Position numbers and translations under genes: made by a program
Source of the DNA: Candidatus Enterousia sp.
GTDB lineage: Bacteria > Pseudomonadota > Alphaproteobacteria > Rs-D84
NCBI GenBank assembly: GCA_045637165.1
Contig: JAZTYU010000008.1
Location: forward strand, 12,524 to 76,523
Length of the DNA stretch: 64,000 nucleotides
Reading direction: 5' to 3'
Notes under the pieces: model-generated
What the model saw: the letters and a program-made list of their open reading frames with translations, nothing else
Told to the model about the DNA's origin: nothing
Database searches by the model: none
Part shown: positions 25,627 to 35,863 of the stretch, piece after piece
Position numbering within the stretch: the first letter of the stretch is position 1
How the letters are laid out: each line of letters begins with the position of its first letter

Positions 25627-25703
25627 TGGTGGGTGGTATTGGACTCGAACCAACGACCTTTACGATGTCAACGTAACGCTCTAACCAACTGAGCTAACCA
25701 CCC
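25627..25703 (-). tRNA. tRNA-Val (anticodon GAC), CCA encoded. Integration target of the adjacent element.
   Basis: The reverse complement GGGTGGTTAGCTCAGTTGGTTAGAGCGTTACGTTGACATCGTAAAGGTCGTTGGTTCGAGTCCAATACCACCCACCA has a 7-bp acceptor stem, anticodon stem TTACG/CGTAA and loop TTGACAT. Confidence 0.9.
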
Positions 25704-25708
25704 AAAAC
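25662..25708. repeat. Left 47-bp direct repeat (att core), covering tRNA-Val positions 1-42 plus 5 nt upstream
   Basis: ACGATGTCAACGTAACGCTCTAACCAACTGAGCTAACCACCCAAAAC, identical to 35817-35863. Confidence 0.9.
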
Positions 25709-25815
25709 TTTACACTAACAGCTTTTATTCAGATTTGTAATATATTGGGCTTTTTTGGTGTTTGTATCTTTATTGCTATTTCCTGCTATGAAATACCCAA
25801 AGACGCTACAAAGCC

Positions 25816-25835
25816 TGCTCCAAAATTGCTCCAAA
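25816..25835 (+). repeat. Tandem TGCTCCAAA(A) repeats (candidate integrase arm-type sites), left end
   Basis: TGCTCCAAAA at 25816 and TGCTCCAAA at 25827, an 11-bp period. The same pair, same strand and same period occur at 35701/35712. Confidence 0.4.
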
Positions 25836-25991
25836 TCAAATTCAATGAATCTGAACTTGCTGTACGCGTAGGCTATAATAGCAGAAAAAAGCAGTTTGTA
25901 AACATAAAAATGCAATTTTGCTTATCAAGGTTAGTTCTTACAAAAATAATTAGAAAATAACAAAGGCATAAAATAAACAAAGGAGAAAAAT

Positions 25992-26204
25992 ATGCCAAGA
26001 ATGATAATCGGATATTATCCAGTAAAAGAAGTTATGGCCTTGGGGGCAAAATATTGGGAAGACATGGTATGTGTAGCGGAGTGCCTAAGGATGCCTGTAG
26101 ACCCATCTGTCAAAAGAGTTATCGAAGATTTGAAACGTGGGAGAGAAATTACGTTAGGACAAGCGAATAAAATGTTCAAATTCAGAGAAACGACAGGATT
26201 GTGA
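25992..26204 (+). CDS. Hypothetical 70-aa protein (island)
   Basis: Strong RBS AAGGAG 8 nt upstream of the ATG. No recognisable motif. Confidence 0.5.
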   Translation: MPRMIIGYYPVKEVMALGAKYWEDMVCVAECLRMPVDPSVKRVIEDLKRGREITLGQANKMFKFRETTGL

Positions 26205-26253
26205 TTATTGCTTAAGCAATAAGCTTATCAAGGGCGCTTTATGGCGCTCTTGA
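26205..26253. promoter_or_regulatory. Perfect 18-bp palindrome plus 10-bp-stem hairpin upstream of the Rep-like gene (candidate origin or operator)
   Basis: TTATTGCTTAAGCAATAA (26205-22). TCAAGGGCGC-TTTATG-GCGCTCTTGA (26228-53, one G-T mismatch). Confidence 0.35.
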
Positions 26254-26473
26254 GGTCATTGCGCATGAATTTGCAGTGTATGAAGAGGTATATAAAGAAC
26301 TGACAGCGAGTTGTTTATATATCTTCGCGTTATGCATACATCTTATCAAGATGCGCATGATAGTGAAAAAACGCTTTTGGGTATTGTGTGGTTCATCCCG
26401 CGGTCTCAAAAACGTGTATCAATACCAAAATCTGGTAAGTATATTTTTATACCCAAAACAAAATGGAGAAAAA

Positions 26474-27244
26474 ATGGAAAATCAAGAAGAAACAAAGATT
26501 GTAGAATGGCTAGAAAGTCTAGAATTTACTCATTCGATGTCTTTACAGTTACCATTTTGTATAAAAACACACAAGCTTGAAACAACAAAGACTTATATAC
26601 GAAAATTTATGAAGGATTTTGAATTGGGGATTATTTATAAAAAGTACAATCAACAAAGAAACAATAAAATCAAAGATACAAATGACTGGCAAAGAAGACT
26701 CGTTGATTTTGTTGTGTTTTTTGAAAATCATGAAATTTATTATACACCATACCATTGTCATATATTGTTGAACGTGAAAAAGAAAAATGGTGTTTTGTAT
26801 TCTGAAGAAGAAATTCACTTAGCTTTGGAATACGCTAAGGAAAAATTCGCCAAAATGTTATCAAAAAAAGAAGGTTCTGTAACAGCTGAAGAGATAAAAA
26901 AGTTATTGGTGAATTATGATATCAGACAGATAAACCCTTTGGATAGCATTTTTCATTATGATATCAAAGAATTTGTTCAATGTAATAAGATTACTTCTAT
27001 TGATAGATTAGAAGATGCTGTTACTTTGTTAGGTGTAACTAGACGTAAAAGGCCTGCAAAAGAACGGAAAAATCCAGAAAAAGAAGAAGTTGTAAAACCA
27101 GTCAAGAAGCCATTCTGCAGTGTGTTTAGGTTGTTGAAAAAAGCACTATGCCCAACGAAGCTTCTGAATGGCGTAGTTGGGCAGATGTGCCAATTATCAA
27201 TTAGGTATTTTGAGTTTATAACGGAAAGATTATATAAAACCTAG
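26474..27244 (+). CDS. HUH-endonuclease-like replication initiator (inovirus Gp2 / rolling-circle Rep-like)
   Basis: Start moved to the ATG at 26474 with RBS GGAGA. Motif order: SMSLQLPF (motif 1-like), YTPYHCHILLNV (HUH motif 2), FHYDIKEF (Tyr motif 3-like). 256 aa. Confidence 0.5.
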   Translation: MENQEETKIVEWLESLEFTHSMSLQLPFCIKTHKLETTKTYIRKFMKDFELGIIYKKYNQQRNNKIKDTNDWQRRLVDFVVFFENHEIYYTPYHCHILLNVKKKNGVLYSEEEIHLALEYAKEKFAKMLSKKEGSVTAEEIKKLLVNYDIRQINPLDSIFHYDIKEFVQCNKITSIDRLEDAVTLLGVTRRKRPAKERKNPEKEEVVKPVKKPFCSVFRLLKKALCPTKLLNGVVGQMCQLSIRYFEFITERLYKT

Positions 27245-34003: not shown

Positions 34004-34134
34004 AAACAAAAATGGGATGAACAAGTTGGCGCTCGCTCATCCCAACAGAACCCTAAACAAGTTAGAATTACTGCCTCAAAAGTCATTTTAGCTTGTTTGG
34101 AATAAAAAGCAAGAAAAACAAAAAGGCGGCTAAA

Positions 34135-35436
34135 ATGGCAACTAGGGAAAACATTACCCAAACACTGGTAAACAAAATCAATATCCATATCGAAAAAGGC
34201 GTGTCCAAAATAGATGATGTTTGGGACACAAAAACAAGTGGGTTCGGTATCCGTATTGGTAAAACCGGTGCGACTTACATTTACAAATACCGCAACAAAT
34301 GCAACCGTTGTCAAACTAAAACGCTGGGCAAAACAAAAGAAATGTCGGTCAATGAGGCACGCGACTTGCTAGACGAATTCAAGCCAACAATCAAGTCAGA
34401 TAGTCTGATAAAATCCAAAAAGAACAAAAATTTTACGGTAAAAGATTTATGCGAAAAATATCAAAACGAACACCAAGTCCGCGCCAGCACTAAAAAGGTA
34501 GATAAAAGTCGCATCACACGACATATCCTGCCCATTATAGGTGATATACGATTGTCAGATTTGACTACAGAAGATGTTTTGAAATTGCAGGCCGCGATTG
34601 CTACTGGCGACAAAAGAATTGTTATTGCAGGACATAAAAATCCAATCAACCCACATTCATACATCAAGGTTTCAGGTGGTACGGGATGTGCCAAGCGTGT
34701 TATGGAAATGTTGAATGCGATTTTGAATTTTGGCGAAGCACATGACCTTATTGAGAAAAATCCGATGAGTTCAAAAAAGTTTGAAAAAATCAATCACATC
34801 AAAAAATCTGTGGCATATCTTGATGAAGAATCTTTTGCACAACTTGGCTACGCAATACGAAAAGCTGAGCTATCAAAAACCAAAGCAAAAAGAGATACAC
34901 AGGCTGCAAACATCATAAAACTATTGATGTTGACTGGGTGCAGAAAAAGCGAGCTGCTGGGGCTTACGTGGGATAGAGTGAATTTGCAACAACAGTATTT
35001 CAACTTCGCACAAACTAAGACCACTGATGGCGAACAAATAAGGGTTTTTGGTTCGGCTGCAAAACGATTGTTGGAAGAAATGCACAAGGCTAAAAGTTCT
35101 AAATATTTGTTCCCAAGCACTGATAAAAAAGGGCAGGAAACACACCGGCAAGATTGTGGAAAAGCACTAAAAACAATTTGCGCATCTGTTACCGGCCTGC
35201 AAGATAAAATACATCCGCACAGTTTACGCCACTCATTCGCAACACAGTGTAACGAATTAGACATGCCTGAAATACAAATTGGTGGCTTGTTGGGGCATAG
35301 CAACGGTAGTGTAACAGCGAATTACACGCACAACAGAATGAAAAAATTGATAGCAAAGGCCAATGTTGTGTCAGAAAGCATACAAAAACTACTGAGCGCC
35401 GGATATCAGAAAGCAGAAGCAGAAAATCAGAACTAA
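34135..35436 (+). CDS. int: Tyrosine site-specific integrase (P4-like, DUF4102-type N-terminus)
   Basis: Start set at the ATG at 34135. N-terminus ...VWDTKTSGFGIRIGKTGATYIYKYR. Catalytic motifs TGCRKSELLGLTW (Arg), HPHSLRHSFAT (H-x-x-R) and LLGHSNGSVTANYTH (His/Tyr). Confidence 0.85.
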   Translation: MATRENITQTLVNKINIHIEKGVSKIDDVWDTKTSGFGIRIGKTGATYIYKYRNKCNRCQTKTLGKTKEMSVNEARDLLDEFKPTIKSDSLIKSKKNKNFTVKDLCEKYQNEHQVRASTKKVDKSRITRHILPIIGDIRLSDLTTEDVLKLQAAIATGDKRIVIAGHKNPINPHSYIKVSGGTGCAKRVMEMLNAILNFGEAHDLIEKNPMSSKKFEKINHIKKSVAYLDEESFAQLGYAIRKAELSKTKAKRDTQAANIIKLLMLTGCRKSELLGLTWDRVNLQQQYFNFAQTKTTDGEQIRVFGSAAKRLLEEMHKAKSSKYLFPSTDKKGQETHRQDCGKALKTICASVTGLQDKIHPHSLRHSFATQCNELDMPEIQIGGLLGHSNGSVTANYTHNRMKKLIAKANVVSESIQKLLSAGYQKAEAENQN

Positions 35437-35448
35437 AGAGGCGTAATT

Positions 35449-35682
35449 ATGAGCATTGCAACAGAGTATATTACAGAAAAAGACTTGTCGGTATACCTTA
35501 CAAAGGAATGTGGTTTGCCGACCTCAAAAAAATTGTTAGAAAAATTGAGAGCACAGGGTAAAGCGCCGGCTTTCAGAAAGTGGGGACGGACAACAGTGTA
35601 TGCACGCAATGATGTAGATGAGTGGGTTCGTACAAAGATGGGACACTTGTACAAATATACCATGTCAAATTACGCAAAATAA
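35449..35682 (+). CDS. Excisionase/AlpA-like HTH_17 DNA-binding protein
   Basis: 77 aa. ...LSVYLTKECGLPTSKKLLEKLRAQGKAPAFRKWGRTTVYARNDVDEWV matches the excisionase-family winged-helix pattern. Directly downstream of int. Confidence 0.6.
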   Translation: MSIATEYITEKDLSVYLTKECGLPTSKKLLEKLRAQGKAPAFRKWGRTTVYARNDVDEWVRTKMGHLYKYTMSNYAK

Positions 35683-35700
35683 GCATCAAAATCAGCAAAT

Positions 35701-35721
35701 TGCTCCAAAAATGCTCCAAAA
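35701..35721 (+). repeat. Tandem TGCTCCAAAA repeats (candidate integrase arm-type sites), right end
   Basis: TGCTCCAAAA at 35701 and 35712. Matches the pair at 25816/25827. Confidence 0.4.
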
Positions 35722-35816
35722 CACAAGAAAATACGACAAAATAAAAGGAATAAAAAATGAATGTATGCGGTAGAAATCTAGGAAAAATTCAAAAAACAAA
35801 TAATCAAGGGAGAATA

Positions 35817-35863
35817 ACGATGTCAACGTAACGCTCTAACCAACTGAGCTAACCACCCAAAAC
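35817..35863. repeat. Right 47-bp direct repeat, a truncated 5' copy of tRNA-Val (positions 1-42) plus 5 nt upstream
   Basis: 100% identical to 25662-25708. It lacks the tRNA 3' part, so it is a non-functional fragment. Confidence 0.9.

Follow-up and report, generated by a model that had tools for sequence, protein, structure and literature searches.

The window, a stretch of 64,000 nucleotides (64 kb) from Candidatus Enterousia sp. (GenBank assembly GCA_045637165.1, contig JAZTYU010000008.1, positions 12,524 to 76,523 of the forward strand), carries a 10.2-kb mobile island that is inserted site-specifically in a tRNA-Val(GAC) gene and is bounded by copies of the 5' part of that gene. We read the island as a site-specific integrative element belonging to a family of small, cargo-swapping islands of uncultured gut Alphaproteobacteria related to Candidatus Enterousia, and assign this reading a probability of about 80%. 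All coordinates are positions in the window, and L-numbers designate retrieved loci in other genomes. These relatives were reached by homology searches; exact-protein look-ups with the island integrase (two start choices) and with the products of the flanking genes orf169 and accB gave no match.

The intact tRNA-Val(GAC) gene occupies 25627-25703 on the minus strand (ARAGORN; Rfam, 71.4 bits) and is identical in sequence to the tRNA of an empty site, L009, described below. The longest exact repeat in the region is a direct repeat of 47 nt, 100% identical between 25662-25708 and 35817-35863 at a spacing of 10,155 bp, and an exact match of this length is far too unlikely to have arisen by chance. 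On the minus-strand gene tRNA position 1 corresponds to 25703, and the repeat comprises raw positions 1-42 plus five upstream nucleotides (25704-25708, AAAAC). ARAGORN places the anticodon at positions 35-37, which gives an anticodon stem of positions 28-32 and 40-44 and a loop of positions 33-39; the repeat covers the acceptor, the D arm, the 5' strand of the anticodon stem, the loop and three of the five nucleotides of the 3' stem strand. The copy at 25662-25708 (tRNA positions 42 to 1 and AAAAC) represents attL, and the alignment with L009 ends at 25708. The copy at 35817-35863, where the same alignment resumes at 35817, represents attR and holds the displaced native 5' fragment of tRNA-Val (positions 42 to 1), again followed by AAAAC; the integrase gene (int, 34135-35436) and a gene for a 77-aa helix-turn-helix (HTH) protein (35449-35682) adjoin this truncated copy. 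In the working tRNA, positions of about 43-77 are native, and the 5' part up to a crossover in the anticodon region comes from the element. The AAAAC flank is host-specific, being the native flank in L009 as well, and is not typical of the island family: in related islands the identity beyond tRNA position 1 is usually 0-3 nt, with a longer but diverged promoter copy in two. The position and extent of the perfect repeat given in an earlier note on this DNA were reproduced exactly, and its statement that the intact tRNA keeps its own 3' part while the truncated copy stands beside int and xis is borne out by the gene calls and the alignments.

The chromosomal neighbourhood consists on the left of the housekeeping gene metG (22971-24962, minus strand) and a 169-aa open reading frame (ORF), orf169 (25088-25597), and on the right of accC (36329-37726, minus strand) followed by accB and mreB. 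In locus L009 (GCA_045613785.1), which was found via homologues of orf169, the genes metG, orf169, tRNA-Val, accC and accB are contiguous. Identity between L009 and the window is 94.2% over 15087-25708 and 91.4% over 36052-45946, with a further short aligned piece at 35817-35910. The segment 25709-35816 is missing from L009, and because the two flanking alignments overlap in L009 by exactly the 47-nt repeat, the insertion was site-specific and a local duplication is excluded. A synthetic join of the window through 25708 and from 35864 onwards equals the L009 site except for a few single-nucleotide differences, and loci L010 and L011 are likewise empty at the tRNA-Val site. The earlier note had proposed a comparison with genomes lacking the insert; L009 proved collinear with the window and breaks exactly at both repeat copies.

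Read in the terms of the Islander survey of tRNA-gene islands (PMC4383910), a full-length gene (25627-25703, minus strand) and a co-oriented fragment of the same gene (35817-35863) bracket the island, and the fragment is a 5' end fragment (positions 1-42) that lies upstream of the minus-strand gene, at higher coordinates. The tyrosine integrase inside is of neither the Xer nor the integron type, the size of 10.2 kb falls within the range of 2-200 kb, and the uninterrupted target exists in L009, L010 and L011, with breakpoints at 25708 and 35817 in the case of L009.

Eight related islands were retrieved from other gut alphaproteobacterial metagenome-assembled genomes (MAGs), and the end modules are common to all of them. 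Their integrases share 86-90% (L001-L005), 58% (L015) and 57% (L017 and L018) identity with that of the window. Seven of the eight carry the 5' fragment beside int-xis, and every visible far end has an intact or truncated tRNA-Val. An exact copy of tRNA-Val positions 1-42 is found at both ends of L001 and L004; the two copies in L003 differ by one base, at tRNA position 20, and L015 shows the reversed layout, with the 5' instead of the usual 3' half repeated, in its own tRNA-Val variant. In L002 and L005 the fragment stands beside int-xis and the far end lies beyond the retrieved DNA, and L017, whose contig begins inside the tRNA, has the reversed layout as well. On the fragment side, the conservation of the six aligned sequences extends out of the element as far as tRNA position 1, beyond which species-specific native promoter DNA takes over. 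At the opposite end, the conserved stretch leads out of the intact tRNA into the element, and sequences past the tRNA 3' end diverge. From these patterns at attL and attR across species, the 5' half of tRNA-Val and its upstream DNA are shown to be element-borne, with the 3' half being native. The cross-species alignments thus uphold the claim that the element abuts and rebuilds the 5' side of the tRNA, which places element DNA upstream of the functional gene.

Comparison of the islands with their host chromosomes indicates recent movement. The left module of L004 (window 25627-27469) is 98.5% identical to that of the window and the right module (33386-35901) 83%, and the backbone of the same two hosts is 74.5% identical in metG and 78% in accC-mreB. 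For the close relatives overall the values are 95-98% for the left module, 83-86% for the right module and 74-80% for the host backbone, and the cargo between 27469 and 33386 is replaced. Because the island is far more conserved than its hosts and its cargo is swapped, these identities indicate recent horizontal movement and show a spread of the family between hosts. The boundaries of the cargo exchange are sharp and common to all close relatives, at 27469 and 33386 (31905 in L002 and L005), and the GC content is about 0.32-0.37 in the left module and 0.42-0.48 in the cargo.

To the right of the displaced fragment the chromosome is rearranged in several species, so that the att site coincides with synteny breakpoints. 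In L005 (11727-12019) a tRNA-Thr(CGT) gene follows directly after the fragment, and the right flanks of L001 and L003 map, inverted, to about 49-53 kb of the window. At attR of L001 (about 11473-11520), 8 nt of upstream sequence of the element type (AAAACTTT) come after the 5' fragment, and a second short remnant of a tRNA 5' end (TAACCACCC) lies between AAAACTTT and the native promoter. This double remnant looks like the scar of an earlier tandem integration with subsequent deletion. A junction similar to attR of L001 was seen in a bovine metagenome contig (run X5), with a loose end at window position 25711.

The integrase (34135-35436, plus strand) is a tyrosine recombinase of 433 aa that comprises an Arm-DNA-bind_3 domain (PF13356, 28.3 bits at a gathering score of 27), a SAM-like domain (PF14659) and a catalytic domain (PF00589, E 7.5e-28), and it also matches PHROG 1. 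The catalytic R, HxxR, H and Y residues are present by inspection of the translation, in the motifs CRKSE, HSLRH, LGHS and ANYTH. Relatives of the enzyme fall at 86-90% and at 54-60% identity; scores against the Xer and integron models of NCBIfam are far below the cutoffs, and the best matches among phage integrases share only 22-25% identity. The designation 'P4-type' used in the earlier note consequently fits the domain architecture and does not extend to the sequence, where no phage integrase exceeds 25% identity. Immediately downstream, the Xis-like small HTH protein of 77 aa (35449-35682, plus strand) matches HTH_17 with E 1.6e-4 and 22.3 bits, which is under the gathering score of 27. 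Five of six members of the Xis-like family match HTH_17 (best E 1.3e-5) and the position right after int is conserved; the description of the protein as excisionase-like, from the same note, is thereby moderately supported by family and location, with the copy in the window remaining below the gathering score.

Candidate arm-type sites lie near both ends of the island. The 9-mer TGCTCCAAA occurs only four times in the 64 kb (expected 0.8; none of 100 shuffles reached four), as one tandem plus-strand pair in the left arm of attP (25816-25835) and one in the right arm (35701-35720), each about 100 nt inside an island end. In L017 the arm sites covary with the integrase and read TGTTCCCAAA. We read the TGCTCCAAA pairs as arm-type sites for the N-terminal domain of the integrase.

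The position of the crossover within the repeat can be narrowed by comparison of relatives. The exact identity in L015 stops at tRNA position 41, with a mismatch at 42, and together with the difference at position 20 in L003 this brackets the exchange to tRNA positions 21-41. Two more distant relatives use the usual 3' half: L020 (35% integrase identity) resides in tRNA-Val(TAC) with a 50-nt repeat of positions 28-77, and L021 (32% integrase identity) in tRNA-Arg(CCG) with a 51-nt repeat of positions 30-77 plus 3 nt. These 3' blocks mirror the 1-42 block of the window about the anticodon stem-loop, which is included in all brackets. The stem-loop reads TTACG-TTGACAT-CGT(A/T)A, an inverted repeat with a 7-nt spacer, and this is the form of a tyrosine integrase core site. 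Most likely, the crossover takes place within the anticodon stem-loop. The integrase family looks anticodon-centred, which corresponds to class 'A' of the att sites as defined in PMC4383910, and in the clade of the window the segment that completes the tRNA appears to have moved to the opposite side of the core.

In a sister subclade (L006-L008, 60% integrase identity) int-xis and the arm repeats abut an intact tRNA-Pro(CGG) gene (L006 1758-1834, L007 11692-11768, L008 8553-8629). The elements of L006 and L007 are near-identical, yet the adjacent tRNA-Pro genes differ at five T-arm positions. This points to a junction at the very 3' end of the tRNA, which would be a different sublocation and orientation inside one family. 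The far end of these islands is outside the retrievable DNA, and the orientation of the subclade is an inferred one. For the window, we give little probability to an exchange at some other place in the 47 nt, such as the D arm or the acceptor stem, in which case the identity in the anticodon arm would be incidental. Strand exchange cannot be placed by sequence identity alone, and the tRNA-Pro subclade, which seems to be joined at the tRNA extreme 3' end, indicates that the sublocation can shift within the family. The differences at positions 20 and 42, however, confine the exchange to 21-41, the mirror-image blocks of the distant relatives stop shortly beyond the opposite side of the anticodon stem, and the stem-loop itself has the form of a core site, all of which favor a crossover in the anticodon stem-loop.

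Integration separates the tRNA gene from its native promoter. This promoter, TTGCAA-16-TGTTATAAT, was found by a scan at 35870-35897 on the minus strand (10/12 matches, plus TG). Both hexamers are kept at attR of four relatives, all except the rearranged L005, and in the empty site; correspondingly, TTGCAA-N16/17-TATAAT stands on the tRNA strand in five of six aligned attR flanks, the exception again being L005. The native promoter, now an orphan, faces xis and int in antisense across the 42-nt fragment; the only terminator-like site on the minus strand there is a weak one at 35567-35550. The functional tRNA is instead preceded by element DNA (25709-25902, minus strand) with a sequence conserved across all four elements of the attL alignment (window, L001, L003 and L004). 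It contains a tRNA-proximal candidate promoter, TTACAA (25740-25735)-17-TAGTGT (25717-25712), which is weak and was recognized by eye only and whose -10 element is degenerate (CAGTGT) in L001 and L003, and a distal candidate, TTTACA-16-TG-TATTAT (25902-25875), which is conserved and was found by the scan. The element-borne copy in L015 and L017 has a consensus promoter, TTGCA(T/A)-N16-TATAAT, and the promoter region of L017 shares 84% identity over 88 nt with its native counterpart. This suggests that the 5' half and the promoter of the element were originally copied from a host tRNA-Val locus.

Several consequences, to which we give a low probability, may follow from this arrangement. The strong orphaned promoter would transcribe the 42-nt fragment and run antisense into xis and int, and may in this way damp excision. 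The host tRNA-Val(GAC) may become dependent on upstream DNA supplied by the element. Within the subfamily of the window, the upstream DNA may have moved away from a consensus promoter of the kind seen in L015 and L017, leaving a weak proximal promoter and a distal one that flanks the arm sites, in which case occupancy by Int could tune an essential tRNA.

The left module encodes a 256-aa protein from ATG (26474-27244, plus strand; the ORF opens at 26276) that resembles HUH replication initiators (Rep). Its motifs are HCHILL at residues 94-99 and YDIK at residues 162-165, and H94, H96 and L98 (HxHuL) as well as Y162 and K165 (YxxK) are invariant in an alignment of 17 sequences that includes members at 19-28% identity. 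The order, HUH motif followed by a C-terminal Tyr motif, is that of the Rep class. The known homologues comprise only five close ones and ten representatives at the 50% clustering level, and the distant members P0144 (30.3 bits at a gathering score of 27.8), P0145, P0147 and the L015 homologue match PF23343 (REP_ORF2-G2P). An earlier AlphaFold2 (AF2) model from 6 sequences was unusable (pLDDT 37) and improved after distant representatives had been added, the model from 16 sequences reaching a pLDDT of 78 and a pTM of 0.69. In a Foldseek search against PDB the top matches were minute virus of mice (MVM) NS1, adeno-associated virus (AAV) Rep, ISDra2 TnpA and the Reps of circoviruses and geminiviruses, and against BFVD the best E was 6e-4, the named matches being parvovirus NS1 and Microviridae initiators. 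The protein of the window likely has an HUH Rep-class fold and may serve either to replicate the excised circle or in mobilization, and the recognition of a Rep-like initiator from the letters alone has held up on the invariant motifs, the PF23343 matches of distant members and the HUH proteins among the top fold matches. A tblastn search of the Rep-like protein against plasmids and phages gave no match.

A life cycle consistent with these features can be proposed. The integrase would recombine an attP of about 270 bp, in which two TGCTCCAAA pairs flank the core, with the tRNA-Val(GAC) gene; the core of the element carries tRNA positions 1-42 and the element's own upstream DNA, not the 3' half. 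In the integrated state the working tRNA gene is a hybrid of the element 5' half, with the element promoter region, and the native 3' half, the native 5' half and the native promoter being displaced by 10 kb to a place beside xis-int. Int together with the Xis-like protein would be expected to excise a circle, which the HUH Rep-like protein would be expected to nick and replicate or process. As it encodes neither transfer nor packaging functions itself, the element would need a helper, and transfer by a conjugative system or a phage is conjectured.

Some results weigh against an active integrative element as described. Neither a relaxase nor a coupling protein, and no capsid or packaging gene, was found in the island. 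None of the 44 candidate sequencing runs, considered as Logan contigs, contained the exact element, the share of words reaching at most 0.64 in the left module and 0.31 on the int side. The Logan contigs of 4 runs, which carried only related, non-identical elements, showed neither an attB nor an attP junction, and patterns for the attP junction and attR gave 0 matches in IMG/VR viral and JGI metagenome contigs. The tRNA-proximal promoter is weak (TAGTGT) and not conserved in L001 and L003. The Rep-like protein of the window itself has no sequence match in Pfam (including PF23343), PHROG or PDB, where a profile search likewise yielded only noise, and its PDB fold matches are individually non-significant (best E 0.023, none at E <=0.001). 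The island might accordingly be the immobile fossil of a genuine past integration, kept because its deletion would destroy the 5' half and the promoter of tRNA-Val, and the missing excised form in the contigs searched and the proximal promoter, degenerate by eye, would agree with such a fossil. We consider this unlikely, since the repeat is perfect (47/47), the integrase is full length with its catalytic residues, the arm sites are intact at both ends, and a left module of up to 98.5% identity across hosts whose backbone is at about 75-78% indicates recent transfer. The probability that the repeat stems from a local duplication or rearrangement of the tRNA region is practically nil: nothing beyond the direct repeat itself speaks for it, the empty site of L009 equals the window minus the inter-repeat segment exactly, which rules a duplication out, and the int module stands at the same tRNA in L001, L003, L004, L015 and L017, with different cargo in most.

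A prophage was ruled out, as the island has no structural genes. A further alternative is a satellite of a filamentous or other single-stranded DNA (ssDNA) phage, similar to RS1 or TLC, in which the Rep protein would make single-stranded circles that are packaged by a helper. The Rep-class motif order of the protein (HUH before Y), the matches of distant relatives to PF23343, a family that includes inovirus G2P-type Reps, the Microviridae and parvovirus initiators among the BFVD fold matches and the absence of transfer genes would all suit a satellite. On the other hand, plasmids and mobilisable islands use HUH proteins of the Rep class as well, neither a helper nor a packaging signal was identified, and there was no match in 50,697 phage records or in IMG/VR, so that we regard the satellite as very unlikely. 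The whole island has no match among the phage records either, satellite and prophage genes are absent from it, PHROG yielded no structural or packaging matches, and the relatives hold only Rep, restriction-modification (R-M) cargo, regulator, int and xis. A joint reading, in which the reversed att would serve as a switch of the integration state and as a means of host capture and, separately, Rep would point to a defence-carrying ssDNA-phage satellite, is decidedly doubtful.

All convincing genes between the repeats lie on the plus strand, except for one small conserved ORF on the minus strand. The conserved left module contains a 70-aa ORF (25992-26204, plus strand; no family match) and ends, just after the Rep-like gene, with the minus-strand ORF of 62 aa (27248-27436, MAVKSNLHYRWKDD...), which has no Pfam match. 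The segment of the latter keeps an identity of about 87% even where that of Rep falls to about 70%, and in L015 and L017 genes of 61-62 aa are called at the corresponding position or close to it. An overlapping plus-strand ORF of 81 aa (27334-27579) was rejected as a gene, the conserved coding signal being that of the minus-strand 62-aa ORF. In the right module, a 178-aa protein (33467-34003, plus strand) that is present in all relatives is a putative HTH regulator, a weakly founded assignment from weak HTH matches.

The cargo of the window comprises three genes on the plus strand. The first two encode proteins of 319 aa (27756-28715) and 1045 aa (28694-31831), each with a hydrophobic N-terminal stretch that appears signal-peptide-like by eye, and neither has a match in Pfam, PADLOC, PHROG, NCBIfam or PDB. 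The 1045-aa protein has a Cys-rich N-terminal half, a hydrophobic segment in mid-protein and a conserved C-terminal HExxH motif (HEQSH); it is homologous to a 1025-aa protein of L007 (E 1e-40) with the HExxH motifs aligned, and L007 has a 310-aa gene at the position equivalent to the 319-aa gene. This cargo pair (window 27756-31831; L007 3052-7058) is common to the island of the tRNA-Pro subclade at 22% identity. The third gene (32023-33336) encodes an AAA_14/DUF4143 ATPase by Pfam, which matches the PADLOC candidate defence gene PDC-S01 (PDLC04786, E 6.5e-161) and is also found in L002, L005 and L007. In the other islands the swap region carries Type I R-M systems (L001-L005 and L017) or a Type II R-M system with a further methyltransferase (L015).

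Two observations concern the surroundings of the tRNA-Val site. In another MAG (L014) an unrelated island of about 8.5 kb lies on the 3' side of the same tRNA-Val gene (10547-10562, 19111-19187); among its genes are one for an integrase of 540 aa, a resolvase gene and TPR_Slam/SlipAM-like genes, and it leaves a 16-nt native 3' fragment beside orf169. Different elements thus exploit the two ends of a single tRNA gene. The native spacer between tRNA-Val and accC contains a structured segment of about 141 nt (window 35911-36095, plus strand) that is absent from L009 and present in L002 (92% identity) and L014 (80%). A plus-strand TTGCAA-18-TATAAT site precedes the segment and a terminator-like hairpin closes it; the predicted fold has -60.4 kcal/mol (z -4.3), and the similarity to Rfam sRNA-Xcc1 is sub-threshold (26.8 bits at a gathering score of 53). 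A partial copy is located inside the island at 27659-27709, upstream of the 319-aa gene, with 76% identity over 51 nt (88% over the best 33). The segment is a candidate small RNA or mobile RNA motif.

The reversed target orientation was reportedly first described by Zhao & Williams 2002, J Bacteriol 184:859. Islander lists 159 of 3919 islands with a 5' fragment of the tRNA gene versus 3760 with a 3' fragment, together with 2083 anticodon-centred attP sites, and its algorithm explicitly allows the 5'-fragment configuration (PMC4383910); recombination at the 5'-distal part was called 'considerably less frequent' elsewhere (PMC6563490). The novelty of the layout implied in the earlier note was therefore overstated, given these 159 islands (PMC4383910) and an earlier description cited in PMC6563490: the reversed layout is rare (about 4%) but established, and the window offers a further case, not a new system. 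As in the Islander 5'-fragment class, an intact tRNA gene and a co-oriented upstream 5' fragment bracket a tyrosine-integrase island that has to supply the 5' part of the tRNA and a promoter. What differs is that the host lineage and the integrase clade are new, and that the reversal occurs within one integrase family whose relatives at 32-35% identity keep the 3' half.

With the P4/CP4-57 islands the element shares an integrase composed of Arm-DNA-bind_3 (DUF4102), SAM-like and catalytic domains, an AlpA/Xis-type HTH protein, the small size and the location at a tRNA gene, whereas the P4 type carries the 3' part of the tRNA, and the window has no P4-type primase, sid, psu or delta, replication appearing to proceed via the HUH Rep. 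In integrative mobilizable elements and RS1- or TLC-like satellites, an integration function is associated with a repressor-like HTH protein and an HUH Rep, and self-transfer genes are absent; the island seems alike in these respects. RS1 and TLC use XerCD, unlike the island with its own tRNA-targeting integrase, and no oriT, nick site, helper or packaging signal was identified for the element of the window. The arrangement of conserved end modules around a swap region with R-M systems or the PDC-S01 ATPase resembles that of mobile defence islands, from which the window differs in that its 319-aa and 1045-aa cargo proteins match no defence model.

The island of the window is a clean, well-bounded case of the minority of islands that use the tRNA 5' half, with an exact empty site, and it belongs to one integrase family with both orientations, mirrored about the anticodon stem-loop. 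The family would be convenient for studying how an attP switches the half of the tRNA it carries, how a promoter is supplied to the host gene, and what influence an orphaned promoter may have on xis and int. A further point is the presence, in a poorly studied and uncultured lineage of gut Alphaproteobacteria, of small cargo-swapping islands that carry mostly R-M or candidate defence genes together with an orphan HUH Rep.

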